This document shows, piece after piece, positions 2,929 to 64,000 of a stretch of 64,000 bases of DNA. Origin of the DNA: a bacterium. Lineage in GTDB: Bacteria > Patescibacteriota > Minisyncoccia > Phycocordibacterales > UBA9973. Each line of letters starts with the position of its first letter. Positions within the stretch are counted from its first letter, which is position 1. Under the pieces are notes generated by a model that did no database searches, had not been told where the DNA came from, and saw only the letters and a list, made by a program, of their open reading frames with translations. The position numbers were made by a program, and so were the translations under genes. The DNA is taken from assembly GCA_037130655.1 (NCBI GenBank), contig JBAXSP010000003.1:68684-132683 (forward strand), written 5' to 3'.

Positions 2929-2977
2929 TCGTTTCTGGTAAAACGTTGCAAGACATCATCCTGATGTAAATAGGAAT

Positions 2978-3006
2978 AAAAAACCACCCGAAAGGGTGGT
3001 TTTTTA
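2978..3006 (+). terminator. Rho-independent terminator (CCACCC-GAAA-GGGTGG + T-run)
   Basis: Perfect 6-bp GC-rich stem, GAAA tetraloop and TTTTTT directly after the stop of the large ORF. Confidence 0.75.
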
Positions 3007-3030
3007 TATGGTTTTTGTTACAATGGCTAT

Positions 3031-4365
3031 ATGAAAAATCTTCGAAAAGTATTGATGATCGCGTTATTTGCAACAGCGTTTACTCCAGCAATTTATGCTG
3101 AGAATACACTAACTCCTTCTCAAAATGCCAAAACACTCTTTTTCAGAGGTTGTATAGCACTCGTTTCTGTATTGTTTTCGGTTCTGATGATCAAAAGTGC
3201 TTCATTTAGAAGTGAGGTAAAGGAGCGACTTGTTGTTGTATGGAAACATCCACTGGTTAAAATAACAACACTGTTATACGGAATTCTTTGTGTTAGTACA
3301 ATCTTTGCCTACCATCATTTGCTTGGTTTTTTTGGAGAAGCAGAACGAGATGAAGGTTTCCTCGGTCTTACCTTTTTCTATAGTCTTTTTTTGTACACAA
3401 TACTCTTGTTTCAAAAGAAGGATTGGTATGTTTATTTTGGAACAGCAATCGCAACACAGTTGTTTGTTTTTTCATCAGCAATACATCAATTTGCCAATGG
3501 AACACATCGTACTAATTCAATCGTAGGTAATCCGATTTATTTTGCAACATATGCACTTTGTCTACTGTGTATTAGTTTTGCAATATATTTTCAAGCAAAA
3601 AAAGAAGAATGGTACACTGTCAAAATAATCAGCATTATTTCTATTATTGTTGCTATACTAGAAATCTTTTTGAGTAACACCCGTGCACTCATGTTGGGTG
3701 TTGCGATAGCTGTTCCTGTTGTACTCAGTCTTTTGTTTGTTTATTCAGACACGGTGTTTTCATCTGCAAAAAAAGTATACGCCAAAAGAATCATTGTTGT
3801 GATATTTGCTGCGTTTGTGGTATTTGGGGCAATCTTTTTGTCGACACGTCAGGCAAAAATATGGACACACATACCGGGACTTGATCGTATTGCACAATCA
3901 AGCACCACGGACTCTTCAACCGTCTCTCGTCTTGTTTCTTGGAATATTGCTCTTCATTCAATCAATCCTGTTGAGGCGGGGATTGGCAGAACACTTTTTG
4001 GATATGGTTGGGATAACTATTTCTTTGCATGGCAAAAGTTTTATCAAACAGCATTGTTTGAATACGACACAGCAACATTTGATCGACCGCACAATAAATT
4101 ACTTGATATGTTGGTGATGAACGGAGTATTAGGATTCCTTGCGTATATGTTGTTTTGGTTTTTGTTTATAAAAATACTCGTCCGCTATGCAAAAAAAGAG
4201 CCACTATTTTCTATACTCTTTGTTTCTTGGGCGGTAGCATATTTTGTACAAAATCTTTTTGCGTTTGATAATATTATTACGTGGATTTTATTCTTTGCGA
4301 TCGTTGCATTTGTGACTAACGAAACGCTTGATGCTCAAAAAGAAGTGATAGTTAAAAAACAATAA
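3031..4365 (+). CDS. Wzy_C-family membrane protein (O-antigen ligase / polymerase / PglL-like O-oligosaccharyltransferase family), copy 1
   Basis: About 10 predicted TM segments. Periplasmic-loop motifs SRLVSWNIAL...P.EAGIGRTLFGYG and FDRPHNKLLDMLVMNGVLG match the Wzy_C signature R..W.A..P..G.G...HN..L..G. Extended -10 TGtTACAAT lies 6 nt upstream of the ATG. Confidence 0.75.
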   Translation: MKNLRKVLMIALFATAFTPAIYAENTLTPSQNAKTLFFRGCIALVSVLFSVLMIKSASFRSEVKERLVVVWKHPLVKITTLLYGILCVSTIFAYHHLLGFFGEAERDEGFLGLTFFYSLFLYTILLFQKKDWYVYFGTAIATQLFVFSSAIHQFANGTHRTNSIVGNPIYFATYALCLLCISFAIYFQAKKEEWYTVKIISIISIIVAILEIFLSNTRALMLGVAIAVPVVLSLLFVYSDTVFSSAKKVYAKRIIVVIFAAFVVFGAIFLSTRQAKIWTHIPGLDRIAQSSTTDSSTVSRLVSWNIALHSINPVEAGIGRTLFGYGWDNYFFAWQKFYQTALFEYDTATFDRPHNKLLDMLVMNGVLGFLAYMLFWFLFIKILVRYAKKEPLFSILFVSWAVAYFVQNLFAFDNIITWILFFAIVAFVTNETLDAQKEVIVKKQ

Positions 4366-4366
4366 T

Positions 4367-5254
4367 ATGAAAAACCAAAAAAATACTAAAATAGCAGAAG
4401 AAAAAAACGGGGTAATGAGTATTGTATTTACTTTTATATCAATCTTTTTTTTTGTTGGTTTTATTTATTGGACAGCTGTTCCGTATATACAAATGGTTCA
4501 ATGGAAAAAAGGAATCGGTGCAATGCTTGCGGGAGATGATACAAAATTTCCAAATGATGACTTCATATATCGTCCGTACAATAATTCAATTCAATCAGGT
4601 ATTAGAATCGCTTCTTTCTCGAATGTTTTCAATCAGTATGTTCGTGGTGAAAGAACTAGTTTTACACCGCTATATGACATTGCTTTTAATCGTGAAAAAG
4701 AGTGGGTAGATGCACATCCGTATCGATATGATCATTTGCTCGCTATCGCCAAAGGATATGAGTACAAAGCAAATCTAACAGGTGATACCTCGTATTATCT
4801 ATTGGCAGATGAGTATTATCAAAAAGCACTGGCACTTTGTCCAGAACGACAAGATTTGCTGTATGCGTATTCGCAACACCTTTCAAATACTGGCAAAAAA
4901 CAAGAAGCGATTGATTTGCTTCAAAAAATGCGTAAACAAAATCCTGGTATTGCTCAAACAGGTTATTATTTGGGGACTGTCTATGCCGCAGGGGATAAAA
5001 CAGGATATGATACTGCGTTGACTTATCTAGAAGACTATTTTGCAACAGGTAATCCTATTGTAGATAAAACAGTTATTAAGACATTGTATGAACATTTCTT
5101 TGTTTATTATTATGACAAGAAGGATCTCGGTCGCTTTACTGTTGTCGCTCGAAGAATGATTATTGCAGATCCTTCACAAGCAGATGTGTACAAAAAAATA
5201 TCAGATTATATTGATACGAATAAAACAATGCCGTATCTTAATATTCACAACTAA
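4367..5254 (+). CDS. N-terminally membrane-anchored TPR-like protein, partner of Wzy_C copy 1
   Basis: N-terminal TM helix followed by a VPYIQMVQWKKG motif and a helical-repeat (TPR-like) C-terminal domain. Paralog of 19488-20102. Confidence 0.6.
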   Translation: MKNQKNTKIAEEKNGVMSIVFTFISIFFFVGFIYWTAVPYIQMVQWKKGIGAMLAGDDTKFPNDDFIYRPYNNSIQSGIRIASFSNVFNQYVRGERTSFTPLYDIAFNREKEWVDAHPYRYDHLLAIAKGYEYKANLTGDTSYYLLADEYYQKALALCPERQDLLYAYSQHLSNTGKKQEAIDLLQKMRKQNPGIAQTGYYLGTVYAAGDKTGYDTALTYLEDYFATGNPIVDKTVIKTLYEHFFVYYYDKKDLGRFTVVARRMIIADPSQADVYKKISDYIDTNKTMPYLNIHN

Positions 5255-5255
5255 T

Positions 5256-6101
5256 ATGCTTATTGTACGATTGCAAGGAGGGTTAGGGAATCAACTATTT
5301 CAGTATGCTTTTGCTCGTGCGCTTTCATTGAAACAAAATAAATCAGTTTTTCTTGAAAAATCATTCAAACAACACAAGGTTTTTGGTATCACTCAAAGGG
5401 AGTATGCACTGGATGTTTTTGCTATAGAGGCACAAGTGTTCGAAGAAAATACTTTTCATAAAATAACAAGTGTTATAAAACGGGTTCTCCAAAAAATAGT
5501 TCATATAGAGTGGCGAGGGCTAGAAAAAAGTTTCGCATTCGATCAAAAAATGTTGACTATAAAAGACGGTTATTTTGATGGCTATTGGCAAAGTTATAAA
5601 TATTTTGAACATATAGAAAGTATCATTAAAAATGAACTTGTGTTGAAAGTTATTTCACCTGAAATAAAACAATTTGCTGATCAGATTGAAACAGAGAAAT
5701 CTTTGGCGATACATATTCGCCGAGGAGATTTTGTTAATAATAAAAAACATGAAGTTGTAAAAAATGATTATTATGAGAAAGCGATAAAAATAATCGAATC
5801 AACACATGCGGTAGAACATATCTATGTATTTTCAGATGATATTGCATGGTGTGAAGAACATCTTCATTTTGATTATCCAACAACTTTTGTACCGCTTGCG
5901 TATGAAGGAAAACACGGAGAAGGTCATCTTCATATGATGAGTAAGTGTCAGTATTTCATTATTCCAAATAGTACTTTTGCGTGGTGGGGGGCATGGCTTT
6001 CAAACAGAAAAGATAAAATTGTCATTACTCCAAAAATTTGGCGAAATGATATACTTATTCCACCAGACGATTTACTTCCACCAGATTGGGTTAAAATATA
6101 A
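5256..6101 (+). CDS. GT11-family glycosyltransferase (alpha-1,2-fucosyltransferase-like)
   Basis: GT11 motifs RLQGGLGNQLFQYA, HIRRGDF and IIPNSTFAWWGAWL. Start taken at the internal ATG at 5256, 1 nt after the upstream stop (the ORF-track start 5163 overlaps the upstream gene). Confidence 0.8.
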   Translation: MLIVRLQGGLGNQLFQYAFARALSLKQNKSVFLEKSFKQHKVFGITQREYALDVFAIEAQVFEENTFHKITSVIKRVLQKIVHIEWRGLEKSFAFDQKMLTIKDGYFDGYWQSYKYFEHIESIIKNELVLKVISPEIKQFADQIETEKSLAIHIRRGDFVNNKKHEVVKNDYYEKAIKIIESTHAVEHIYVFSDDIAWCEEHLHFDYPTTFVPLAYEGKHGEGHLHMMSKCQYFIIPNSTFAWWGAWLSNRKDKIVITPKIWRNDILIPPDDLLPPDWVKI

Positions 6102-6104
6102 ATT

Positions 6105-6923
6105 ATGCAAAAACCTCGTATTACAATTATTCTACCTGCTTACAACGGTGCTCGTTGGATTGAAACGGCCATCAAAAGTGCACAAAATCAAACATTTACT
6201 GATTTTGAATTACTCGTTTTTAACGATTGTTCAAAAGATAATACCGAAGAAATCGTACTTCGATTGGCCGAACAAGACAATCGGATTATTTATACAAAGA
6301 ATGAAAAGAATCTTGGCGTTCAGAGAACTCGTAATATTGCGCTCCAAAAAGCTCAGGGTGAATATATAGCTGAAATTGACCAAGACGATGAGTGGATCGA
6401 CAAGGATAAATTACAAAAACAACTTTCGTTTCTAGAAAACAACAAAGACTATGTACTTGTTGGGACCGGTGCAATCATGATTGATGAGAAAGGGAATGAA
6501 ATAGCTCGATATTTGATGCTAGAAACTGATAATCAGATCAAGAATAAACTCTTGCGTGCAAACTGCTTCATTCACTCAAGTGTGATGTATCGCAAAGATA
6601 TCGTAATTGAAATTGGCGGTTATACAATAGAAAAAATGTCTGAAGATCATGACCTTTGGCTTCGCCTCGGAAGACACGGGAAATTTATGAATTTTCCAAC
6701 GTATTCAGTTAAATACCTTTTTACACCGAGTGGATATAACTCTCAAGACAAAATTCTTCGATTGAAACAAAATTTACTTTTTACCAAAGAACATAAAGAT
6801 TTTTACCCAAACTATGTTTATTCAGTTATCTATGGTTGGGCAAAAATTTTATTTACACCAATTTTCAATCTTTTGCCGACAAGGCTAAAAGGATTCTTTC
6901 TTTGGTTGCACAAAAAGATCTAG
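6105..6923 (+). CDS. GT2-family glycosyltransferase
   Basis: ITIILPAYNGARWIETAIKSAQNQTFTDFELLVFNDCSKDNT and a DQDDEW (DxD-like) motif, i.e. GT-A fold. Confidence 0.8.
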   Translation: MQKPRITIILPAYNGARWIETAIKSAQNQTFTDFELLVFNDCSKDNTEEIVLRLAEQDNRIIYTKNEKNLGVQRTRNIALQKAQGEYIAEIDQDDEWIDKDKLQKQLSFLENNKDYVLVGTGAIMIDEKGNEIARYLMLETDNQIKNKLLRANCFIHSSVMYRKDIVIEIGGYTIEKMSEDHDLWLRLGRHGKFMNFPTYSVKYLFTPSGYNSQDKILRLKQNLLFTKEHKDFYPNYVYSVIYGWAKILFTPIFNLLPTRLKGFFLWLHKKI

Positions 6924-7901
6924 TTATTTTACCGTGCCTAATTTAATATATTCTTCGCACGTATTTTTAATATGTTCTTCAATAGAAAGTATGTTTTTGA
7001 AACCAATTGTTTTTTCAATTTTTTCTTGTGACAAAATACTTTGATTGGTCAAAGCTTTGAGTCTTGCGAAGGTCAAAGGGTTTTTCTTTCTTAAAATAAA
7101 ACATACAACTAGTAGTACGGTACTTATTCCAAAAGCTATAAAATAGGGAATCGTGTATGTTTTTCTTGTGATTTTTGGTGTGGCATTTTTGACAATCTCA
7201 TCCATTTTTTTGTATGCAACTGCATTGCTTAGGATATAGATATTACCAAACGAGCTATCGGTTTTTCCGAGTAGTTCTAATGCGCGAATCACTTCGTTTA
7301 TATGGACGATATTATAATATCCAGTACCAATATTTTTATATAAACCACTTCTCATACTTTGGATTAGCTGGAGAAAACTACCACCTTCTTTGTTGTTTCC
7401 GGTGCCAAATATAGTACTAGGACGCAAAATATGGGCCTTTAGACCCTGTTTGATTGCTTGGACGACAACTTGCTCGGCTCTGTATTTTGATCGGCCGTAA
7501 GCATTGTGTGGATGTGGAATGGTTTCTTCTGTAACAATCTTGTCTTTTGTTTGTCCGGTAATTCCGGCACTTGAAAGATATATGAGTGTACAGTTATTTT
7601 TCATTGCTTGAGCTACAATATTTTTTGTCCCGAGTACATTCACTCGTTCAAGTTCTTCTGTATTGTAAATTGATCCCGCGCAATGATAGATAATACGCAC
7701 ATCATTTGGGATTTCAAAAGAATCGGTAATATCAGCTATAATAAAACTCACCCGATCGTTATTTTCAAATAGGGGAGATTTTTTTCTAGATAAAATATAT
7801 ACAAAACAACCTTCGTCCAATAAAGCTGTTACGAGTTTTGCTCCAACATATCCGGTACCACCCGTAACAAGGATTTTTTTGTTTTCCGAAATATGTTCCA
7901 T
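6924..7901 (-). CDS. NAD-dependent epimerase/dehydratase family protein with C-terminal TM segment
   Basis: Rossmann motif LVTGGTGYVGAKLV. Short-chain dehydrogenase (SDR) catalytic YxxxK motif (YGRSK). Hydrophobic C-terminal helix. Confidence 0.75.
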   Translation of the reverse strand: MEHISENKKILVTGGTGYVGAKLVTALLDEGCFVYILSRKKSPLFENNDRVSFIIADITDSFEIPNDVRIIYHCAGSIYNTEELERVNVLGTKNIVAQAMKNNCTLIYLSSAGITGQTKDKIVTEETIPHPHNAYGRSKYRAEQVVVQAIKQGLKAHILRPSTIFGTGNNKEGGSFLQLIQSMRSGLYKNIGTGYYNIVHINEVIRALELLGKTDSSFGNIYILSNAVAYKKMDEIVKNATPKITRKTYTIPYFIAFGISTVLLVVCFILRKKNPLTFARLKALTNQSILSQEKIEKTIGFKNILSIEEHIKNTCEEYIKLGTVK

Positions 7902-7904
7902 ATA

Positions 7905-8573
7905 TTAGTGAGATTTCTTTGTAAAACTTTTGATTTTTCTTTTTAGCCAGTGTTCCATTTTCATTTCTTTTTCAAATACACGAGGATTGATAAGATTTAA
8001 TATTCCTTTTCGGTTTTTGTTGAAGAAATTATAGGTATAAATATTTTCAGTATTATATGTCGATGTAAATAGTTTTTGACTACCTTTTTGAATAATCGCA
8101 CAACCTTCATCGGCATCGATTGTGTAGATTTGCACATCAGGATTTTCTGTTCGCAATTTTAAGATCGCTTTCCAGACATCGCCGTGCCAAACACTCGAAG
8201 CTCGTTCGCGTCGCTGAGTGATTTCTCTGGTTGGATTACAGTCATGGACAACAATTGTTCCGCCATCATTGAGCCATTCCAATCCATTGATAATATCTTT
8301 GTATGCTTGTTCGAAAAGGTGTAACCCATCGATAAAAATGATGTCATATTTCATTTGTATATGACTCGCAAAAAATTCATCAGAAGTCATCTGAAATGTC
8401 GTATCAACCGCTGGGTCAACACCGTGTTTTGTCTCTATGTTGATACTTGTGTGACTGTAACCTGGTTGAGCAGGAGTATTGACACCTATTTCTAAATAGG
8501 TTTTGTAGTTATTTTTTTTGATAAGCGTATTGATAATTTCTGTGCGAGTCAGTGTTTTTAGTAGTTGTCTCAT
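7905..8573 (-). CDS. Class I SAM-dependent methyltransferase (putative sugar or glycan O-methyltransferase)
   Basis: YLEIGVNTP and IIFIDGLH motifs and the TIVVHDCNP acidic patch are typical of CmcI/Methyltransf_24-like folds. It sits inside the glycan cluster. Confidence 0.55.
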   Translation of the reverse strand: MRQLLKTLTRTEIINTLIKKNNYKTYLEIGVNTPAQPGYSHTSINIETKHGVDPAVDTTFQMTSDEFFASHIQMKYDIIFIDGLHLFEQAYKDIINGLEWLNDGGTIVVHDCNPTREITQRRERASSVWHGDVWKAILKLRTENPDVQIYTIDADEGCAIIQKGSQKLFTSTYNTENIYTYNFFNKNRKGILNLINPRVFEKEMKMEHWLKRKIKSFTKKSH

Positions 8574-10348
8574 TTGAATAATTCTTTGTATTTATCTTTA
8601 TTCTCCTTAATATACCGTGGTAGACCCTTTTCATCAATATGATAAGCAAAGTTTCTTCCAGCGACATCTTGATTATTTTGTAATCGTTCAGTTATCTGGT
8701 TTTTTGTTGAATCATTGTTTAGTTCTTGGTGTGAGAAGGACTCGATTTTTTCTTTGACCCGATTCTCGCCACCTTGATAGGTGAAATGCCAGCCACCATT
8801 GTTTACAAAAGTATACGGTGTCTTTCTCTTTGTGCGAAGATGATTGAGACAGTTGTTTTTGATGTTTTTGTACTTTGTCGCCAAAGTGCCAGTCCAGGCT
8901 TCATTCGATTTGTTGTTCAAATAATAGCAATAGACTGCTTGTCTGAATTTATAGATGTCATCTTTTTGGTAATCAATTACTATTTCTGGATTCCAGATTT
9001 CATCAAGGTCAGAGACAAAACAGAAATCATTATCAGAAAGATTTGTTAATGCGTGCTTCACAGATTCCTTTTCATAGAAATCACGCAAGAAATGATTCAT
9101 TCCTTTTGGAATATTATCTGAAGTTAGTGTTTGTTTCAAAATTGTTTTTTCAAGTTGAGATATACTGCCTTCATTTAGTCGTTCTTGTGCGTCAGTAAAA
9201 TCTTGCAACGGATGCTCTATGACATAGTGAATAATTTTGTGTTCAAATTGTTTGAAACGTTCTTTGTTTTTCTCATAAAACAATTCTTTTGGTTTACCTG
9301 AGTGGGTGAGTGTGGATTCAACGATAACGAAATAATCAACATATGGATCAAGAATGTTAAGTCGGATATCAAGTAATTCAAGTTCGTTGAAGAAATTAAA
9401 AATATCATAGATTTTTATCGTTTTACGATAATTGGCAATCTCTGCTATTTTTTTCTTTGAAGGATTCTTATAGGTTTTAGATAGGAGTGCATTTTTTTTG
9501 ATTAAAAGAATGTTTTTGATTTTGCGATATATTTTTTGAATCAAAATTTTGGTATTCATAAAGATTTTTTTGTATAAGATATTTGCAAGAATAGAAGCAA
9601 ATAAGAAATATAACTTTCTACTGATCGGTTCGGGTTTTGTTTCTGTATTTATAAAATCTTCATCAAGTGGTACGAGAATTTTTGGGTTGAACTCGAAATT
9701 GCTCATCATAAGCGTAAACATAGTTCGTTCAATCATGTGTGTTTCTGCTGGTTCCTGACAATGAGACATAAAGAGTCGTAGATTTTGATAGACTACTTTC
9801 GGTACTTTCAAAATACGTTCTTTTGGTGCAATGAAATCTCCTCCAGGAGAAAAACGGACATAGAGTGGAATTACCGGATCTTTGTATAAAAAACGAATGA
9901 AGTCATTGTGGTTGTGGAAATATTTATGTTTCCAGTATTTGAAATACCAACTACTGTTGATTTCACATAAACCGCCATCTGGAGACAGGTATGCGACAGG
10001 GAATATAGTGTCGTATGTTTTCCAGTCTTCAAGTGGTGTATACCAAGTATTGTTCATTACCTTGTCGAATGTTTCTTTTCGAACATGACGTGGAAAAGAC
10101 CAGCCTTTGGCAAAGATAATACAATCAGGAAGGTTGTCGTAATTGTCGATGATATATGTAAAATATTCATATGAATTATATCCGTTGTTTGAGCCAGGTA
10201 ATACTTTTTGAAAATCAATTGTTTCTGGTATTGCCACTTTGTCACTGCGTTTATTATAAATAACATAGTTGTCTGTATATTCAGGCACCCACGAAAGATC
10301 ATTATTGAAATTTGATATAACCAAGAAGTTTTTTTGGATTTTTTTCAT
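8570..10348 (-). CDS. Two-domain glycosyltransferase: unknown N-terminal domain plus GT17-like C-terminal domain
   Basis: The C-terminal IYDIFNFFNELELLDIRLNILDPYVDYFVIVES matches the bacterial GT17 (MGAT3-like) signature. The N-terminal ~240 aa has no motif I recognise. A K-rich hydrophobic linker separates the two. Confidence 0.55.
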   Translation of the reverse strand: MKKIQKNFLVISNFNNDLSWVPEYTDNYVIYNKRSDKVAIPETIDFQKVLPGSNNGYNSYEYFTYIIDNYDNLPDCIIFAKGWSFPRHVRKETFDKVMNNTWYTPLEDWKTYDTIFPVAYLSPDGGLCEINSSWYFKYWKHKYFHNHNDFIRFLYKDPVIPLYVRFSPGGDFIAPKERILKVPKVVYQNLRLFMSHCQEPAETHMIERTMFTLMMSNFEFNPKILVPLDEDFINTETKPEPISRKLYFLFASILANILYKKIFMNTKILIQKIYRKIKNILLIKKNALLSKTYKNPSKKKIAEIANYRKTIKIYDIFNFFNELELLDIRLNILDPYVDYFVIVESTLTHSGKPKELFYEKNKERFKQFEHKIIHYVIEHPLQDFTDAQERLNEGSISQLEKTILKQTLTSDNIPKGMNHFLRDFYEKESVKHALTNLSDNDFCFVSDLDEIWNPEIVIDYQKDDIYKFRQAVYCYYLNNKSNEAWTGTLATKYKNIKNNCLNHLRTKRKTPYTFVNNGGWHFTYQGGENRVKEKIESFSHQELNNDSTKNQITERLQNNQDVAGRNFAYHIDEKGLPRYIKENKDKYKELFK

Positions 10349-10355
10349 ACTAGTT

Positions 10356-11342
10356 TTACAGTGCTTGTCGGATTATTTTGTATAATTTTCGAACCTTGCG
10401 TAACATATTTCTTTGAAATAGAAACAATCGTTTTTTTTCATAGATTACTGGTGTTGTATCCCTTTCTCCTCGTTTATAGTCTTTCATATCAGCGATACAT
10501 TCTTCGTATGACTGTAGTTGAAAAGTTCGATCCATATATTTCCATCCACTGGTAATATTGTATCCGCAACCCCAATAACCGTCTGAGGTATTCCATTGTG
10601 ACCAGTATTTCGGTGCAATGCAGTATTTCAAGTTTTCATTCAACCAAGCAGGGAACCAAGCAAAACTAGAATTTGAAAGAATTAAATAGTGAGCATTTTT
10701 TACAACGACATAATCTTTTGCAATATTAAAATGAAGCACATCAAAAGCAGGGAAGAACTTTTTGGCAGTGATCACATCATCAGTAATGACAATAAAGCGA
10801 AAGTCAGGATTGATTTTGCGCATATGAGTGACTGCGTTGTCCCAATACTCTTGCGGAAGAAATACGTGAGGAATACCAACATATTCACCACCACGAAAAT
10901 TGATTACGCAAATGTGTTCATTTGCGTAATCAAAACATTCATACGTATCTTTTACTTTCAACCACTCACGAATTTCATCTTTGTGTGACAAGATGTATTG
11001 CTCGTCTTGCATGATACCGTCGATTTTGGTGTTGTCAGCTACGTTCATCAAGTCTGCATCGTAAGTACGAATATCAACACCAGTTTTTGGATGGAGGAGT
11101 TGTTTTTCTCGGTAATAATGAGTTATTCCTTCAGGTAGTGTGATAGCAGGTCCTCCTTCAGGACCAGTACCACCAATTACTTGTTCGCCGAAATCTAGAC
11201 TCATGAAATCCAAACATTTGAATTTTTGCGGATTCATGATGCCGTATTTATACCCTTTATTTTTGGCAATTACTCTTGTCACCACATAGCACCACAGTTG
11301 GTTTCCAAGTCCTTGTCCGTTGTATATTTCGGTGACAATCAT
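10356..11342 (-). CDS. GT11-like glycosyltransferase, second copy
   Basis: N-terminal GQGLGNQLW and C-terminal LILSNSSFAWFPAWL mirror GT11 motifs I and III of ORF 5256-6101. Confidence 0.6.
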   Translation of the reverse strand: MIVTEIYNGQGLGNQLWCYVVTRVIAKNKGYKYGIMNPQKFKCLDFMSLDFGEQVIGGTGPEGGPAITLPEGITHYYREKQLLHPKTGVDIRTYDADLMNVADNTKIDGIMQDEQYILSHKDEIREWLKVKDTYECFDYANEHICVINFRGGEYVGIPHVFLPQEYWDNAVTHMRKINPDFRFIVITDDVITAKKFFPAFDVLHFNIAKDYVVVKNAHYLILSNSSFAWFPAWLNENLKYCIAPKYWSQWNTSDGYWGCGYNITSGWKYMDRTFQLQSYEECIADMKDYKRGERDTTPVIYEKKRLFLFQRNMLRKVRKLYKIIRQAL

Positions 11343-23469: not shown

Positions 23470-27046
<3,577 letters not shown>

Positions 27047-53428: not shown

Positions 53429-53851
53429 ATGAAAAAAGGATTAAAAGGTTTTACATTGATTGAATTGTTGGTTGTTATTGCTATTATTGGTATCTTGGCT
53501 TCTGTGGTGCTTGCATCATTGAACTCAGCTCGTTCAAAAGGACAAGCTGCTTCAATCAAGGCAAACATGAAGAACATGCAATCACAAGCTGCTTTGTACT
53601 ATGATACAAACAATGCATATGCAACAAGTACACTTTCAACTTGTTCAGGTGGTTTGTTCTCTGATGCAAACATTGTTGCTGCAATCAACCAAGCTTCAAG
53701 TACAGGTGCAACTATCGTTTGTAACGCTACAGCAGGTGCTTCAGGTGCGTACTCTATCATGGCTTCAAGTACAGCTCTAGGTGGATACTTCTGTGTGGAC
53801 TCAACTGGTAAAGCTTCAAACGCATCAAACACTGGTGCTGCTTGTAACTAG
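53429..53851 (+). CDS. Type IVa pilin (major pilin candidate 1)
   Basis: Prepilin leader MKKGLKG|FTLIELLVVIAIIGILA (G-1, F+1, E+5). Ser/Thr-rich C-terminal domain with two Cys pairs. Confidence 0.85.
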   Translation: MKKGLKGFTLIELLVVIAIIGILASVVLASLNSARSKGQAASIKANMKNMQSQAALYYDTNNAYATSTLSTCSGGLFSDANIVAAINQASSTGATIVCNATAGASGAYSIMASSTALGGYFCVDSTGKASNASNTGAACN

Positions 53852-53969: not shown

Positions 53970-54497
53970 ATGAAAAAAGGTTTACAGAAAATAAAAGGTT
54001 TTACATTGATTGAATTGTTGGTTGTTGTTGGTATTATCGGTATATTGGCCGCTGTTATTGTCGCTGCTACTAGTACTGCTCGCGCCAAAGGTGACAACGC
54101 TGCGATTCAACGAGGACTGGATACTATCAGAAAACAGTCTGAAATATACTATACAAACAACAATTATAAATACGGCACAACAGATTTGAATGCGGCCGGT
54201 TCAATATCTGCTGATTGTTCTACTGCTGCAAGTAATATGTTTGCTGACCCAACAATCTCAACAGCAATTACGCAAATCGGGAAATCTTCAGGTGGGCAAA
54301 CAAAAGCAAACATCGCTTGTGCATTCGGATCTGCAAAAAATGCTTGGACATTTTCTGTATTAATGAAGAATTCAGGAAATATTACAGGGGTGTGGTGTGT
54401 TGATGGTCGCGGAGGTACCATGAAGAAATATGCATCTTCTACTCAAGCGGACGATACAACAAACGTGGTAGATACTGCTAACTTTATCTGTAAATAA
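53970..54497 (+). CDS. Type IVa pilin (major pilin candidate 2)
   Basis: MKKGLQKIKG|FTLIELLVVVGIIGILAAV. C-terminal disulfide-type Cys pair. Confidence 0.85.
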   Translation: MKKGLQKIKGFTLIELLVVVGIIGILAAVIVAATSTARAKGDNAAIQRGLDTIRKQSEIYYTNNNYKYGTTDLNAAGSISADCSTAASNMFADPTISTAITQIGKSSGGQTKANIACAFGSAKNAWTFSVLMKNSGNITGVWCVDGRGGTMKKYASSTQADDTTNVVDTANFICK

Positions 54498-55310: not shown

Positions 55311-56012
55311 ATGAAAATAAAAATTATCAAAAAAACTATTTTCAAAAAAGCATTTACTGTTGTTGAAATGTTGGTTGTTGTTGGTATTTTTGTGATGATT
55401 TCTGGAGTAATTTTGTTCAACTCAAAATCTTTTTCAAGTAGTGCGAATTTGCAAAATGTGATGCAAGACTTAGCTTTGGCAATACGAAAAGCACAAGGAT
55501 ATGCTTTGGGGTTTCAGACGCCAAGTGTTGTAGGTGGTACTATTACCGGTTTTGGGGTTTATTTTGGTGACACTCAAACAACAAATTCTGCGTGGCAGAA
55601 AAAATATGCAATCTATGCAGATTTTAATGATGCTGGTGTCGGTGCATATAATCCATCAGGAAGTAGTTGTGGAACAGGTTCACTTGCTGCAGGGAGTGAA
55701 TGTTTGGAGGTACTAAACATGACAACTGGTGAAAAAATTTCTAATATTTGTTTGTCATATAATGGTACGAGTAATCAAATGTCAGGAGCAGTGACTGGTA
55801 CAAGTTGTGTTGGTACAAGTGATGCAGTTACCATGTATTTCAATCGACCAAAACCAGATGCGCAATTTTGTTGGTTTAAGTCAGGTAGTACAACATGTAC
55901 CACTACTGTTTCAAGTAATGCAATTAGTGACGTCAGTATTGAGGTGACTGCACTTAACAATAGTAAAAAAATTGTCACCGTTTGGAATACTGGACAGATT
56001 GGAATTAAATAA
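55311..56012 (+). CDS. Minor pilin / pseudopilin
   Basis: Prepilin-type N-terminus ...KKA|FTVVEMLVVVGIF. Confidence 0.7.
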   Translation: MKIKIIKKTIFKKAFTVVEMLVVVGIFVMISGVILFNSKSFSSSANLQNVMQDLALAIRKAQGYALGFQTPSVVGGTITGFGVYFGDTQTTNSAWQKKYAIYADFNDAGVGAYNPSGSSCGTGSLAAGSECLEVLNMTTGEKISNICLSYNGTSNQMSGAVTGTSCVGTSDAVTMYFNRPKPDAQFCWFKSGSTTCTTTVSSNAISDVSIEVTALNNSKKIVTVWNTGQIGIK

Positions 56013-60785: not shown

Positions 60786-62207
60786 ATGATTGATCTAACA
60801 AATATAACAATAGAAAAGGCGCACAATTCACTCACTAATCGTGAGTATACGGTGCGTGAACTTGTTGATGCATATTTGAAAAACATTGATGAAAAGAATG
60901 CGAACATCAATGCGTATTTGGAAATATACAAATCACTCGATGAACAAATTGTTCGTGCGCAAAAAATGATTGACGATGGAAGTGCGGGAGTTATGACCGG
61001 TATCCCTGTTTCAATCAAAGACAATATGTTGGTGACCGGCGAGCATGCAAGTGCTTCATCAAAGATGCTTGAAGGATTTGTTGCGGTTAGTGATGCAACG
61101 GTAATTGCAAAATTGAAGTCTGCCGGAGCGGTGCTAATCGGTCGCACAAATATGGATGAATTCGCTATGGGTTCATCAACTGAGACAAGTGCGTATGGTA
61201 TCACACGCAATCCACTGAATCCTGACTATGTGCCAGGTGGTTCATCTGGTGGTGCTGTGTCGTCTGTAGCGATGGACGGAGCATTGGTAGCACTCGGCTC
61301 AGATACTGGAGGATCTATTCGTCAGCCAGCTGGGTACACTGGACTTGTTGGTTTCAAACCGACCTATGGAGAAGTTTCTCGTTCAGGAATTATTGCAATG
61401 GCCTCATCACTTGATCAAGTTGGTCCGATTGCAAAAACAGTTGCAGATGCAGAAATACTTTTCAATATAATTCGTGGTGTTGATGTGATGGACGAAACTT
61501 CTATTTCAGAAACTGTTGTACGTGACACACGAGAAATTAAAAAAATTGGTGTGCCGACTAACTGGATTGAACAAGGTGGAATTGAAGCGTCAGTCAAAAA
61601 GAATTTTGATGAGACGGTGGAAAAATTAAAAAATGAAGGATATGAAATCGTATCAGTCGACTTACCAATCACGCAGTACTCACTCGCAGTCTACTATGTC
61701 TTGAACACTGCTGAAGTTTCAAGTAACCTAGCTCGCTATGACGGTCTTCGTTATGGATTGAGTAAAGAAGGGAAGACATTGCAAGAAGTCTATGAAAAGA
61801 CTCGTGGTCAAGGTTTCGGTAAAGAAGTTCGTCGTCGTATTTTGCTCGGTGCATACATTCTTTCTCATGGATATTATGACGCGTATTACAAAAAAGCCCT
61901 CGATGTACAAAATGTGATTCGTGGAGAGCTTGCAGGTGTGTTCAAAAAGGTAGATGTCATCATGACACCGACAGCACCATTTCTTCCATTTAAATTTGGT
62001 GAAAAAATGAATGACCCGATTGCTATGAAATTGGCAGACCTTTTCTTGGCACCAGCAAACATTGCCGGTAATCCCGCACTCTCGATTCCGTCAGGTGATG
62101 CAGAAGGCAATTTGAAACACAGTACACACTTTTTGGCTCCAATGCTTGCAGATGATGCACTGTTATCATTTGGAAAAAAAGTAGAAAAAATAATGACCAA
62201 TTACTAA
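60786..62207 (+). CDS. gatA: Glu-tRNA(Gln)/Asp-tRNA(Asn) amidotransferase subunit A
   Basis: Amidase signature GGSSGGAVSSVA, Ser-cisSer-Lys triad context, 473 aa. The last 5 codons plus stop lie inside the repeat arm 62191-62219. Confidence 0.9.
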   Translation: MIDLTNITIEKAHNSLTNREYTVRELVDAYLKNIDEKNANINAYLEIYKSLDEQIVRAQKMIDDGSAGVMTGIPVSIKDNMLVTGEHASASSKMLEGFVAVSDATVIAKLKSAGAVLIGRTNMDEFAMGSSTETSAYGITRNPLNPDYVPGGSSGGAVSSVAMDGALVALGSDTGGSIRQPAGYTGLVGFKPTYGEVSRSGIIAMASSLDQVGPIAKTVADAEILFNIIRGVDVMDETSISETVVRDTREIKKIGVPTNWIEQGGIEASVKKNFDETVEKLKNEGYEIVSVDLPITQYSLAVYYVLNTAEVSSNLARYDGLRYGLSKEGKTLQEVYEKTRGQGFGKEVRRRILLGAYILSHGYYDAYYKKALDVQNVIRGELAGVFKKVDVIMTPTAPFLPFKFGEKMNDPIAMKLADLFLAPANIAGNPALSIPSGDAEGNLKHSTHFLAPMLADDALLSFGKKVEKIMTNY

Positions 62208-62312
62208 TGACTAGTGACTAATAAAAGTGCGAAGCCTACTGCTTCGCACTTTTATTATTTTATTTTTAATTAGTCATTAGACACTGGTCATTAGTCATTA
62301 CCCTCTGTTATA
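62191..62312. repeat. Left ~123-bp inverted repeat (stop-rich arm, hairpin GTGCGAAGC-loop-GCTTCGCAC and T-tract, then TAATTAGTCATTAGACACTGGTCATTAGTCATTACCCTCTGTTATAC)
   Basis: Reverse complement of 63490-63612, differing only in the hairpin loop. Confidence 0.85.
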
Positions 62313-62322
62313 CTTAATCCAT

Positions 62323-62979
62323 ATGGAACAAGCTCCAATTGTCGGTGTCGTGAATAATACTGCAGGTAAGGTTGACCCAACCTATTTGAACCTAGATTAT
62401 ATTTTTTATCAGGTGTACCATTTTTTTGCATCATTGTTTGGTGGAGGTAGTGGTAGTGGAACAGGTGGTGGTTCAAGTCAAAGTGCAGGAACTTCTTTTA
62501 TCATTTTTATGAAAAATCTCTCAGCGGTCATTTGTATTTTCCTCATCACGGTTATTTTGTATTGCTTGGTGCGTTTATATGAAAAGAAAATAGAAAAAGA
62601 AAAAGCTGCAAAAGAAGCAAAAGAAGCAGCAGTAAATCAAAAAGTAGAAAATGCTTTCAAATCACAAAATGATAAATGGGAAAACATTGTTGACCACAGC
62701 ATGACTGCAAATCCGAACGATTGGCGACTGGCGATTATCGAAGCAGATAGCATGCTTGATGAATTGACTCAAAATTTGAATCTCTCAGGTGAGAGTCTTG
62801 GTGAGCGGTTGAAGAGTGCAAGTCGAAATAGTTTTCAAACAATTGATTTGGCATGGGAGGCTCACAAACGCCGAAACAAAATTGCTCATGAAGGATTGTC
62901 GTATGATCTGACGCAAAGAGAAACAAAAGAAACAATAGAAATGTACCGCCATATTTTTGAGGAGTTTAAAATCATATAG
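62323..62979 (+). CDS. Bitopic membrane protein with Gly/Ser-rich N-terminal region and cytoplasmic HEPN-like (Rx4H: RRNKIAHEG) C-terminal domain
   Basis: A TM helix (FIIFMKNLSAVICIFLITVILYCLV) separates the GGGSGSGTGGGSS region from a ~120-aa helical C-terminal domain ending in the motif WEAHKRRNKIAHEG. Confidence 0.5.
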   Translation: MEQAPIVGVVNNTAGKVDPTYLNLDYIFYQVYHFFASLFGGGSGSGTGGGSSQSAGTSFIIFMKNLSAVICIFLITVILYCLVRLYEKKIEKEKAAKEAKEAAVNQKVENAFKSQNDKWENIVDHSMTANPNDWRLAIIEADSMLDELTQNLNLSGESLGERLKSASRNSFQTIDLAWEAHKRRNKIAHEGLSYDLTQRETKETIEMYRHIFEEFKII

Positions 62980-63088
62980 TAATTACTAGTGACTAATGAC
63001 CAATGACTAGTAATTTCGAAAACCAAAAAGTGCGAAGCCTACGGCTTCGCACTTTTATTAGTCACTAGTCATTAGTAATTGGTCATTA
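62980..63088. repeat. Central palindromic terminator module (TAATTACTAGTGACTAATGACCAATGACTAGTAATT ... GTGCGAAGCCTACGGCTTCGCAC TTTTATT AGTCACTAGTCATTAGTAATTGGTCATTA)
   Basis: Same hairpin and arm sequences as the flanking repeats. Lies between the convergent stops of genes 62323 and 63094. Confidence 0.8.
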
Positions 63089-63093
63089 CATTT

Positions 63094-63480
63094 CTACCCT
63101 ATAATAATTGTATCAAAATATTCTTTCATCTCTCGGTCTTCCATTTTGATAGTACTATTACTGCAATCAAGTACCGCAACGTCTGCTCGCAAGTAGGTGA
63201 TTTGATGAGGGAAGTCTGGAAGAAAACGTTTGCCCAATGCTTCGATAATTCCCGCATGAATTTTTTGTTTGATGTCATTTTTGTTTCCCAAGACATCGAC
63301 ATCGAAATTTGTTGTACTTGCTTCTTTGATTTCTACAAAAAGTTTTGCATTAATAATATCCACCTCTAAGATTTCAGGGTCTTCAATGATTTCATTCAAC
63401 TCAGTTTGATTTCCAATTATTTCAACAATTTTATTTGGAAGCTCTTTTGGAGTTGCTTCTGGTATGAGATTATTTTCCAT
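63094..63480 (-). CDS. Hypothetical acidic 128-aa protein, partner of the HEPN-like gene
   Basis: ORF convergent with 62323-62979 inside the repeat-bracketed cassette. No recognised domain. Confidence 0.45.
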   Translation of the reverse strand: MENNLIPEATPKELPNKIVEIIGNQTELNEIIEDPEILEVDIINAKLFVEIKEASTTNFDVDVLGNKNDIKQKIHAGIIEALGKRFLPDFPHQITYLRADVAVLDCSNSTIKMEDREMKEYFDTIIIG

Positions 63481-63489
63481 ATAAAATAA

Positions 63490-63612
63490 GTATAACAGAG
63501 GGTAATGACTAATGACCAGTGTCTAATGACTAATTAAAAATAAAATAATAAAAGTGCGAAGCCGTAGGCTTCGCACTTTTATTAGTCACTAGTCATTAGT
63601 AATTGGTCATTA
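63490..63612. repeat. Right ~123-bp inverted repeat (reverse complement of 62191-62312)
   Basis: GTATAACAGAGGGTAATGACTAATGACCAGTGTCTAATGACTAATTAAAAATAAAATAATAAAAGTGCGAAGCCGTAGGCTTCGCACTTTTATTAGTCACTAGTCATTAGTAATTGGTCATTA. Its last 3 nt form the TAA stop of the minus-strand helicase gene. Confidence 0.85.
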
Positions 63613-64000
63613 TCTACGTGATTGTACAAACGTCAGAGAATTTCCTGTTTTTGTTCCACGTCCTGTTCGTCCAATACGGTGCACATAGGTGTCGTAGGTA
63701 GAAGGAAGGTCGTAGTTGATCACGTGAGTGATGTCAGCAATATCGATACCACGAGCAGCAACGTCTGTTGCGATCACGACATGAGCTTCTCCATTTGCTA
63801 GAGATTTGACTGCACGATCGCGTTCACGGTTGCGCATATCTCCGTGGAGTGCCAATGCTTTGAATCCGCGAGTTTTTAGTTCGTGTGCCAATTCATCAAC
63901 ACTTCTTTTCATTTCTCGGAAAATAAGCACTTTACTTGCTTCAGGTTTGATAAGTACTTCGTGTAGTTTTTCGATTTTATCTTTTTGATCAACGAAACGA
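63610..64000 (-). CDS. DEAD-box RNA helicase (C-terminal part; gene continues beyond the window end)
   Basis: Helicase-C motifs VIATDVAARGIDI (V) and HRIGRTGR (VI). The reading frame stays open to coordinate 64000. Confidence 0.8.
   Translation of the reverse strand, partial: RFVDQKDKIEKLHEVLIKPEASKVLIFREMKRSVDELAHELKTRGFKALALHGDMRNRERDRAVKSLANGEAHVVIATDVAARGIDIADITHVINYDLPSTYDTYVHRIGRTGRGTKTGNSLTFVQSRR

Follow-up and report, generated by a model that had tools for sequence, protein, structure and literature searches.

Palindromic heptamer-armed repeats around a probable bidirectional terminator at gene ends of a Patescibacteria genome

A repeat of about 110 nt, in which inverted arrays of a 7-nt unit enclose a hairpin, is present in at least four copies, at two or more loci, within 69 kb of a Patescibacteria genome. 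Three copies (E1, E2 and E3) lie in the window, that is, the whole 64-kb stretch of DNA that was analysed, and a fourth (E0) lies outside it. We judge it somewhat probable that these copies are dispersed palindromic terminator repeats with frame-closing arms, which spread by copy-and-paste and underwent local gene conversion. To our knowledge, few repeats have been described in the small genomes of Patescibacteria (Candidate Phyla Radiation, CPR), and a literature search for MITE-type repeats in this radiation returned nothing relevant.

The three elements of the window share one layout (Table 1): four YARTKAC heptamers, an A4 tract, a 10-bp GC stem with a 3-nt loop, a T4 tract and four inverted heptamers, so that each is a complete palindrome of about 110 nt with arms on either side of the hairpin. 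Seven of the 10 base pairs of the stem are G-C; in E1, a C/T mismatch at the top leaves 9 bp and a 5-nt loop. The loop is TAC in E1 and E2 and GTA in E3 (read on the + strand), E3 corresponding to E1 in reverse complement. Each arm consists of four heptamers in tandem and has neither an internal palindrome nor a GTAG head, and when the B arm is reverse-complemented it matches the A arm at 26 of its 32 positions, the outermost heptamer being identical. The predicted folding energies of E1–E3 range from -47 to -53 kcal/mol (z from -9 to -13). The hairpin GTGCGAAGC-N5-GCTTCGCAC was found exactly three times in the window (62227, 63030 and 63554), against none expected from shuffled sequences, and all 13 window matches to TAATGACYAGTGACTAAT with up to three mismatches fell in the E1, E2 and E3 sites (0.08 expected). 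Likewise, all 24 tandem [TC]A[AG]T[GT][AT]C heptamers belonged to these elements, as six arrays of four units, for which TRF gave a period of 7, 4.3–4.6 copies and the consensus TAATGAC; no other run of YARTKAC heptamers was found in the 64 kb. These counts bear out the three copies described in an earlier note on this DNA, except that the middle one spans 62980-63088 and does not begin at 63000.

Table 1. Positions of the elements, their parts and the adjoining genes and promoters in the window.
Feature	Position	Strand	Remarks
gatA	60786..62207	+	last codons (I)MTNY and stop inside E1 A arm
139-nt inverted repeat, left arm	62190..62328	+	E1 + CCCTCTGTTATACTTAATCCAT + ATGGAA
E1	62191..62300	+	gatA stop to ORF1 promoter interval; nhmmer full-length match, E=7e-32
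E1 A arm	62191-62222		TAATGAC CAATTAC TAATGAC TAGTGAC TAAT
E1 hairpin including A/T tracts	62223-62253		
E1 T-rich spacer	62254-62268		
E1 inverted B arm	62269-62300		
Extended -10 box TGtTATACT	62306..62314	+	8 nt before ORF1 ATG; conserved in sister contigs
ORF1	62323..62979	+	218 aa, conserved Patescibacteria membrane protein; TAG stop abuts E2 directly
E2	62980..63088	-	between convergent ORF1 and ORF2
E2 C arm (+ strand layout)	62980-63011		
E2 spacer (+ strand layout)	63012-63025		
E2 hairpin (+ strand layout)	63026-63056		
E2 A arm, reverse complement (+ strand layout)	63057-63088		
ORF2	63094..63480	-	128 aa, no known family; stop 5 nt before E2 A arm
139-nt inverted repeat, right arm	63475..63613	-	E3 + ORF2 promoter + ATGGAA
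Extended -10 box TGtTATACT	63489..63497	-	8 nt before ORF2 ATG; conserved in sister contigs
E3	63503..63612	-	ORF2 promoter to helicase stop interval
E3 B arm	63503-63534		
E3 hairpin	63550-63580		
E3 A arm	63581-63612		
DEAD-box helicase gene, 3' part	63610..64000	-	runs off window

The fourth copy, E0 (L234:4002-4112), is located 1.1 kb to the left of the window, on a Logan contig from the same genome whose sequence shares bases 1-10835 with the window. It is diverged but full-length, aligns end to end with E1–E3 (81% mean column identity) and has the full set of arms, spacers and core in unchanged order, and the homology ends sharply at both arm ends, where the flanks are unrelated. Its stem carries a double change from T-A to C-G and a G.U pair on the strand of the preceding gene. 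An nhmmer profile built from the four copies found exactly four full-length copies in 69.2 kb (E values from 1e-28 to 1e-33). The copies measure 109–111 nt and have sharp ends, the flanks differ between E0, E2 and the E1/E3 pair, and all eight arms consist of four units each and are parts of a longer conserved element. Three of the four known copies share one 1.4-kb locus, while E0 lies 64 kb away with unrelated flanks, which implies a small dispersed family rather than a single locus. The repeat family proposed earlier is thus upheld by the profile search and the end-to-end alignment. A purely local inverted duplication, its copies kept alike by gene conversion, is made less probable by E0. 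As is expected of a repeat, the Logan assembly is interrupted 7 nt beyond the gatA stop. Around none of the four copies is there a direct repeat of at least 3 nt that could represent a target-site duplication, a 2-nt TA duplication being indistinguishable from the TA...TA arm ends, and no transposase, RAYT or integrase was found among the genes of the 69 kb examined.

Within the 1.4-kb locus, E1 and E3 are parts of a longer inverted repeat of 139 nt, the arms of which are 97% complementary and reach through the promoter to the ATGGAA of ORF1 and ORF2. Between 62190 and 62316, a single base (at 62240) differs from the partner in 127 nt, while the following 12 nt hold three differences, all of which match the orthologues and not the paralogue. 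The right half of E2 repeats that of E3 directly over 63 nt, with only the 3-nt loop inverted. This pattern of mismatches shows that neighbouring copies have been homogenised by gene conversion, and the single mismatch in the 127 nt shared by E1 and E3 indicates that such local conversion is at work in addition to dispersal.

The structure of the core, together with its location and conservation, makes it very probable that it acts as a bidirectional intrinsic (Rho-independent) terminator. The tracts read AAAA-stem-TTTTATTA in E1 and E3 and AAAAA-stem-TTTTATTA in E2, and in E0 they are TTTCGAATTT on the + strand and TTTTGTT on the - strand. Five gene ends lie 0–35 nt from a hairpin. The window holds at least ten further terminator hairpins with flanking A/T tracts; these lack arms, each has a stem of its own, and they are, like the terminators of the sister genomes, of the same style as the element core. 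The stem, the A/T tracts, the placement at gene ends and the hairpins found at the same sites of sister genomes all support the Rho-independent hairpin that had been proposed. An Rfam scan of 61500-64000 gave only sub-threshold chance matches (miRNA precursors, traJ 5' UTR), caused by the long hairpin. Both promoters of the locus are of the leaderless, extended -10 type that is typical of the source genome.

We then examined how the arms relate to the ends of genes. Five gene ends face an element, and each of these genes stops within it or at most 5 nt away. GatA ends in ..KIMTNY-TAA, with the TAA lying in heptamer 3 of the E1 A arm, whereas the proteins of the sister genomes end in ..EELVSK*, ..EKLL* and ..EKAVE*; the gene upstream of E0 is likewise stopped by an arm. 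Hence, the earlier claim that the arms supply the stops of flanking genes holds for these two genes. For the helicase gene, the position of the TAA is as reported (63610-63612, the outermost 3 nt of the E3 A arm), but it occupies the same position in three heptamer-free sister contigs and is therefore ancestral and not supplied by the arm. With its 11 stops, the 32-nt A arm leaves none of the six frames open, a property found in 0.3% of the 32-mers of the window and 3% of A-arm shuffles, and the B and C arms close five of the six, each leaving one open, in agreement with the stops in several frames of both strands noted before. Since the 7-nt unit is not a multiple of three and includes TAA and TGA, with a TAG on the other strand that arises across the heptamer junction, nearly all frames are closed. 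The richness in stops is an automatic by-product of repeating a 7-nt unit that bears TAA/TGA, with no sign of selection. An alternative genetic code with UGA as a sense codon was rejected, as the ORFs do not lengthen, and so was the idea that ORF1 and ORF2 are paralogues; exact look-ups of the two sequences returned no record. In GatA relatives at 80% and 76% identity, the next gene begins 13 and 5 nt after gatA, respectively.

The sister contigs L221, L222 and L223 have about 90% protein identity to the window (92% for GatA, 92% for ORF2 and 89% for ORF1 in L221) and the same gene order across all three sites, and L224 covers one site, from the helicase gene to ORF2. At all three orthologous sites of L221, L222 and L223, and at the site in L224, there are plain bidirectional terminators with the same -10/ATGGAA, and heptamer pairs are absent from each of these sites. 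When the orthologous hairpins of the four genomes were centred on their loops by script, pairing was retained at every position despite changes on both sides; the positional homology of the stems in this comparison is uncertain, because MAFFT and RNAalifold misaligned them and yielded no consensus structure. The sister stems GTGGCGAAACAC and GCGGCGGAACCC resemble the window stem GTGCGAAGCC, and hence the core could be ancestral in place and not imported. At the orthologous sites, the element takes the place of a terminator-containing segment (79 nt at the helicase site of L221), with no clean empty site.

The exact hairpin was absent from 185,579 species-representative genomes, a set that does not include the source genome, save for six unrelated hairpins on Clostridia-type, Oscillospiraceae and Alistipes contigs that had no heptamer pairs. 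More than 200 metagenomic or viral contigs carry four or more YARTKAC-type units, some with the cyanobacterial GCGATCGC motif and several of high G+C content, and no relative of the element was seen among the (YARTKAC)x4 matches listed. Among these listed matches, only seven of 234 arrays elsewhere were paired, in the geometry of the element, with an inverted partner no more than 150 nt away, and a hairpin with 7 bp or more of uninterrupted stem came within 60 nt after only two arrays outside the window, neither array having a mirrored arm; no general tie of heptamer arrays to gene ends or terminators was found in other organisms among the matches listed. The junction between arm and hairpin had no match in the viral scan, nor did BLAST against phage records with the locus and one phage contig as queries. 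Phage contigs from human samples hold a GACYAAT-type heptamer at a gene junction, where an ORF ends in ..IMTNY*, as GatA does. A 131-nt hairpin insertion in the 23S rRNA of the source genome is possibly a further site of such a heptamer.

According to the explanation that we favour, the elements would have reached new and unrelated sites by copy-and-paste, replacing ordinary terminators, the candidate routes being an enzyme acting in trans, which is how REPINs and MITEs move, and hairpin-mediated template switching. The core would terminate transcription arriving from the genes on either side. As the arms close nearly every frame, an element landing on or just before a stop codon would cost the gene no more than a few tail codons, as is seen in gatA and the gene upstream of E0. 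Beyond this, the arms may form a long stem, as RNA or as DNA, or bind a protein. The comparison with the sister genomes could also be read without mobility, the heptamers having grown by slippage on ancestral terminators, been mirrored across the hairpin by template switching, with a longer palindrome as the result, and spread only by conversion between terminators that were alike beforehand. Such evolution in place agrees with the terminator hairpins of the sisters at the same three sites, whose similar stems include a C-G, T.G, T-A series at one pair, with the clear conversion tract between E1 and E3, and with the left-hand gap between the window and L221 after gatA, which is exactly 14 nt, i.e., two heptamers. 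L221 also holds three heptamer-like units after gatA (TAGTCAG TAAGTAA GACTAAA) and two paralogous hairpins that are more alike than orthologues, and L224 has built a different extended palindrome (AAGCATAAGG / CCTTAT, -41.8 kcal/mol) around the orthologous hairpin. However, E0 has arms, spacers and core in order and sharp ends 64 kb off in an unrelated context, and conversion cannot make a copy without prior homology. Eight independent arms of exactly four units, all from one heptamer family, would also be needed, and the stem of the sister terminator between ORF1 and ORF2 (AAATCCTGTAAC) is unrelated, while E2 carries the stem of the family. We regard an origin in place as unlikely.

A role of the arms as putative binding sites, with the repeat kept for regulation, is unlikely and might involve either a DNA-binding regulator at the ORF1 and ORF2 promoters or a single-strand binder on the 3′-UTR, such as a cold-shock or S1-type OB-fold protein or an HUH enzyme. 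Each of the two identical promoters has a B arm immediately before it, which overlaps its -35 position (TGGTCA, 18 nt, TATACT), and deletion of the GAC(C/T)AAT x8 array, made of the same heptamer, upstream of recO in Nostoc PCC 7120 altered promoter responses (bioRxiv 10.1101/2022.06.06.494920). Similarly, the TAACTGA arrays of Beggiatoaceae were proposed as S1, Csp or CsrA sites, with CspB reportedly binding one heptamer per protein (PMC4679880). Against this, the sister genomes use the same promoters without heptamers, the extended -10 leaderless promoters of the source genome need no -35, the A arms face gene ends and not promoters, and 173 listed arrays of the heptamer family on other contigs had no orientation bias to gene starts or ends. 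The earlier note had put forward a module selected by the host, orientation-independent and halting both translation and transcription, as a possible genome-wide terminator design. Its description stands insofar as the terminator-like core is symmetric and has tracts of A and of T, none of the six frames stays open across the A arm, a property seldom expected by chance, and each of the five adjoining genes stops in an arm or within 5 nt, but selection for the stops is unsupported. Every gene has its own in-frame stop, so that extra stops are of no evident benefit, the B and C arms each leave a frame open, the helicase stop is ancestral and the sisters are armless at the same sites. The armless terminators of the window imply that the element is not a genome-wide design, in line with the absence of any further copy from the 69 kb, and we consider host selection of such a module very unlikely. 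It is equally doubtful, to our mind, that the arms are putative recognition sites of a novel machinery, such as an OB-fold or HUH-type protein, that would read seven nucleotides of single-stranded DNA or RNA at a time. The recurrence of GACYAAT in cyanobacteria, metagenomic and viral contigs, a phage gene junction and possibly 23S rRNA could reflect a cross-phylum class of heptamer-based mobile or regulatory sequences, of which the terminator palindrome would then be one domesticated form.

If the elements are dispersed repeats, a selfish or semi-domesticated sequence can settle exactly at the gene ends of a compact genome at almost no cost, and close relatives may come to differ in their terminators yet keep the promoters and stop codons in place. 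At gene ends, elements of this kind interrupt short-read assemblies, the Logan contig being an example. With stops in nearly all six frames and a putative bidirectional terminator in 110 nt, they are natural examples of compact insulators and could be of interest for genetic-part design. The occurrence of the heptamer in cyanobacteria, as GACYAAT, also prompts one to ask what produces or recognises the unit.

REP units are imperfect palindromes of 20–40 nt with a conserved GTAG-type head, and BIMEs can attenuate transcription and stabilise the upstream mRNA. Like the REPIN/REP-BIME repeats of Proteobacteria, which are mobilised by RAYT (PMC3116915, PMC3337134), the element is short (about 100 nt), non-coding and extragenic, has two inverted parts that form one long hairpin, is sited just after gene ends, is species-specific in sequence and shows no target-site duplication of 3 nt or more. 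It differs in that its arms are tandem 7-nt units instead of single GTAG-headed imperfect palindromes, its centre is a complete A/T-flanked terminator, its host is a Patescibacteria bacterium, and it has four known copies and no RAYT gene in the 69 kb examined. The Correia elements of Neisseria are bacterial MITEs that carry regulatory signals. With MITEs of this type, the element shares a similar size (about 100–150 nt), inverted ends (26/32 in the element), dispersed copies with unrelated flanks and the capacity to carry a terminator, promoter-like signals and a long RNA hairpin, but it has no detectable target-site duplication or known cognate insertion sequence, and its ends are heptamer arrays. 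Ordinary bidirectional intrinsic terminators resemble the core in their A tract, GC stem, short loop and T tract and in their position at convergent and tandem gene ends, whereas the element has one and the same stem at four sites, enclosed by inverted arms of 32 nt.

The STRR-type arrays of cyanobacteria have the same unit as the arms, TAATGAC/CAATGAC being cyclic permutations of GACTAAT/GACCAAT, and are also tandem, intergenic and adjacent to promoters or gene boundaries. They are variable in length, mostly single and placed just before start codons, whereas the element has four units per arm, in inverted pairs around a terminator, within a longer repeat and in a different phylum. TAACTGA direct repeats occur in marine Beggiatoaceae, Cyanobacteria and Bacteroidetes, and insertions were argued to be tolerated only at protein ends (PMC4679880). 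They too have a 7-nt unit with TAA and TGA, forward arrays of which stop all three frames, and are mostly intergenic, some overlapping the stop codon of the upstream gene. Unlike the element, they read TAA-C-TGA instead of TAA-TGA-C, lie mostly one to a few nucleotides before start codons and are unpaired around terminators. In summary, the closest analogues are REPIN/MITE-type repeats together with the cyanobacterial GAC(C/T)AAT heptamer arrays, and the element is a new version of known bacterial repeats and not a novel type of system.

The hairpin GTGCGAAGC-N5-GCTTCGCAC occurs three times in the whole window (at 62227, 63030 and 63554; 0 expected), and a script count of tandem YARTKAC units found 24 in the 64 kb, namely six arrays of four, all at the three hairpin sites. 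Tandem Repeats Finder reported a period of 7 with the consensus TAATGAC. E1, E2 and E3 share one layout, in which four forward heptamers, 4 nt, A4, a 10-bp stem and a 3-nt loop are followed by T4, a T-rich spacer of 14-22 nt and four inverted heptamers. On either strand, the whole element is predicted to form a single long hairpin (-47 to -53 kcal/mol, z-scores -9 to -13), and no Rfam family matches it.

Repeat elements, the genes that they face and their order
Feature	Position	Description
E0	L234:4002-4112	full-length, diverged copy; about 1.06-1.17 kb left of window base 1
E1	62191-62300	complete element of about 110 nt
E2	62980-63088	complete element of about 110 nt
E3	63503-63612	complete element of about 110 nt
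gatA	60786-62207 (+)	
ORF1	62323-62979 (+)	218 aa
ORF2	63094-63480 (-)	128 aa
helicase	63610-64000 (-)	
Gene order		gatA > E1, promoter, ORF1 > E2 < ORF2, promoter, E3 < helicase

We then found a fourth copy, E0, on a Logan contig of the same sample (L234, SRR12676975_127108; sample SRR12676975), which overlaps window bases 1-10835 and reaches 5.2 kb further left. E0 aligns end to end with E1-E3 (81% mean column identity); the two arms, the two spacers and the core follow one another as in E1-E3, and the similarity ends sharply at the outer arm ends. Its stem, GCGCGAAGCC / GGTTTCGCGC, differs from that of E1-E3 by a T-A to C-G double change and, read on the upstream gene's strand, includes one G.U pair, which would be an A.C mismatch on the opposite strand. 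E0 sits between a 265-aa gene upstream and 620 nt downstream in which no gene was called. An nhmmer profile built from the four copies matched exactly E0-E3 in 69.2 kb; on the relatives, its matches were weak and confined to the hairpin.

A 139-nt inverted repeat (62190-62328 / 63475-63613) holds E1 and E3 as its inner portions. Compared base by base, its two sides differ at one position across 62190-62316 (62240, the stem top) and at three within the 12 nt preceding the start codons, and the similarity stops after the ATGGAA common to both. In its right half (hairpin and arm, 63026-63088), E2 repeats the right half of E3 in direct orientation; its left arm and spacer have diverged further. 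This mismatch pattern shows that gene conversion homogenises neighbouring copies. The 3-nt loop is inverted between E2 (63026-63056) and E3 (63550-63580) relative to the adjoining arm (TAC vs GTA); it seems to have flipped between the stem arms of an otherwise identical hairpin.

The orthologous sites were compared in sister genomes, where an ORF1 homologue (P0122, 89% identical) is present on three contigs, L221, L222 and L223, and a fourth contig from another relative, L224, covers the helicase end. The gene order on L221 is ligA, short gene, gatC, gatA, ORF1 >, < ORF2, < helicase, < HIT, identical to the window from ligA to the helicase (GatA and ORF2 are each 92% identical). L221 (ENA NODE_676_length_14697) is a perfect fold-back with the same genes reversed after about 7.5 kb, which looks like an assembly artefact, and one half alone entered the comparisons. 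The three intergenic regions measure 86, 53 and 93 nt in the relatives vs 115, 114 and 129 nt in the window; those of the relatives hold ordinary A/T-flanked terminator hairpins with the same -10 box and ATGGAA, and no heptamer pairs. At the three orthologous sites, the element takes the place of a segment with a terminator and is not an addition to an empty site. Between ORF1 and ORF2, the stem of the relatives' terminator is unrelated to that of E2, which makes E2 a family-core copy and not a diverged orthologue. On the helicase side, the stems are GTGCGAAGCC (window), GTGGCGAAACAC (L224), GTGGCGGAACCC (L222) and GCGGCGGAACCC (L221); aligned on the loop centre, all positions pair in all genomes, and one pair runs through a C-G, T.G, T-A series. 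The pairing kept here supports selection for the hairpin; it is no proof of base-by-base homology of the stems. Around the orthologous helicase-side terminator, L224:384-500 carries a different extended palindrome of about 105 nt (-41.8 kcal/mol); one of its sides uses AAGCATAAGG direct repeats, the other CCTTAT motifs.

The window uses the standard bacterial genetic code, with TAA as the commonest stop. The 32-nt A arm contains seven forward and four reverse stops and closes six of six frames, as do 0.3% of the window 32-mers and 3% of arm shuffles; the B and C arms close five frames each. This closure arises because a 7-nt unit with TAA and TGA is repeated and TAG spans the unit junction on the other strand, an argument previously made for TAACTGA repeats (PMC4679880). 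All five genes that run up to an element stop in it or next to it. The stops of gatA and of the gene before E0 lie inside (the latter gene ends ..RYYLNND-TAG, with the TAG within the second heptamer), the helicase stop lies at the first base of the element, that of ORF1 abuts it and that of ORF2 is 5 nt short of it. GatA ends ..EKIMTNY* in the window, ..EELVSK* on L221, and ..EKLL* and ..EKAVE* in two further relatives; since these tails differ, the last gatA codons in the window are arm sequence. The helicase TAA, which the earlier note had taken to be supplied by the arm, occupies the identical position in all four genomes compared, including relatives without heptamer pairs, and so is ancestral and not imported by the element. 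In our reading, frame closure would make landing on a gene's last codons nearly harmless; we found no evidence of host selection for it.

The GatA and ORF1 homologues come from Patescibacteria (Paceibacteria / Nomurabacteria-type names). At many window genes, a TGnTAnAAT-like box lies 6-10 nt upstream of the ATG without a Shine-Dalgarno sequence, so that the usual promoter is of the extended -10, leaderless type, and mRNAs in this genome seem as a rule to be leaderless or nearly so. ORF1 and ORF2, each preceded by the box TGtTATACT, fit this pattern. The two genes are convergent, with near-identical promoters and ATGGAA starts, likewise in the sister genomes, which suggests that they may be co-regulated. 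ORF2 belongs to no known family, and ORF1 to one that is widespread in Patescibacteria, with more than 400 homologues. Across 32 aligned homologues, the consensus contains a hydrophobic stretch, and R, N, I, A and H within its block R-N-K-I-A-H (an HEPN-like Rx4H motif) are among the invariant residues; 3 of the 32 match DUF4145 (Pfam). In a relative with an 80% identical GatA (P0002 contig, ENA ERZ27296333), a bAvd-like gene and a reverse transcriptase, possibly a diversity-generating retroelement, lie directly upstream of gatC. Elsewhere in the window, a 64-nt repeat (53442-53505, 53992-54055 and 55345-55408; 69-91% identity) is common to three genes, and the Logan assembly breaks at one copy. 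On the Logan contig L220, which spans this part of the window, a gene of the region has a Pfam N_methyl (type IV pilin-like) motif; PilM, PilO and T2SSE/T2SSF domain genes lie further upstream (contig L236).

Outside this genome, arrays of at least four YARTKAC units were found on more than 200 metagenomic and viral contigs (a lower bound), some also bearing the cyanobacterial GCGATCGC motif and several of high G+C. In Nostoc PCC 7120, eight copies of the same unit, written GAC(C/T)AAT, precede recO and affect how the promoter behaves (bioRxiv 10.1101/2022.06.06.494920). Among the matches listed, most of these arrays stand alone: an inverted partner in the same geometry accompanies 7 of 234, and a hairpin whose perfect stem reaches 7 bp or more follows only two non-window arrays within 60 nt. 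In orientation, the listed arrays are not biased with respect to gene ends. Thus, the 7-nt unit was already known and the composite element was not. The window's 23S rRNA gene (23475-27043) exceeds the Rfam model by about 640 nt, with 131 nt (about 25539-25670) in place of 23 nt at model positions 1886-1908; this insert forms a long predicted hairpin (-67.6 kcal/mol) with heptamer-like inner arms (GTCGTTA GTGATTA GTCATAG ... TAAGTGAC TAATGAC TAAGAGAC), and it does not match the element profile significantly (E about 5). An exact 21-mer of the A arm, TAATGACCAATTACTAATGAC, occurs where two genes meet in one lineage of viral contigs (L225-L233, e.g. L226:5195-5790; IMG/VR), several contigs of which have 7000000xxx sample numbers, taken as human-microbiome samples. 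The upstream viral ORF likewise ends ..IMTNY-TAA, a second heptamer run follows 545 nt on at the next gene junction, and BLAST matched these contigs to no known phages; the 21-mer is probably a chance match within a restricted heptamer family.

The earlier note had described a terminator hairpin within a repeat family, and this observation holds and now extends to E0. A selected genome-wide terminator design, one of the two readings between which it did not decide, is not supported: at least ten other perfect A/T-flanked terminator hairpins in the window have unique stems and no arms. Apart from six unrelated hairpins, the exact hairpin is absent from 185,579 species-representative genomes, with a pattern that misses diverged stems such as that of E0. 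From its structure, position and conservation, the core would terminate transcription from both sides, and the arms may form a long stem in read-through RNA or a cruciform, or serve as a binding site. E0 and E2 point to a copy-and-paste route by which the element could have reached unrelated sites. As far as testable, it is not a classical MITE: it shows no visible target-site duplication, genes in the 69 kb encode no transposase, integrase or RAYT domains, and a segment is replaced at the orthologous sites. To our knowledge, few repeats have been described in Patescibacteria. The hairpin nature of the element and the absent target duplication recall the single-strand mechanisms of REPIN/RAYT or IS200-type elements and, likewise, hairpin-driven template switching, which might be an alternative copying route. 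The element is a REPIN/MITE-like repeat with STRR-type heptamer arms, a variation on repeat types already known.
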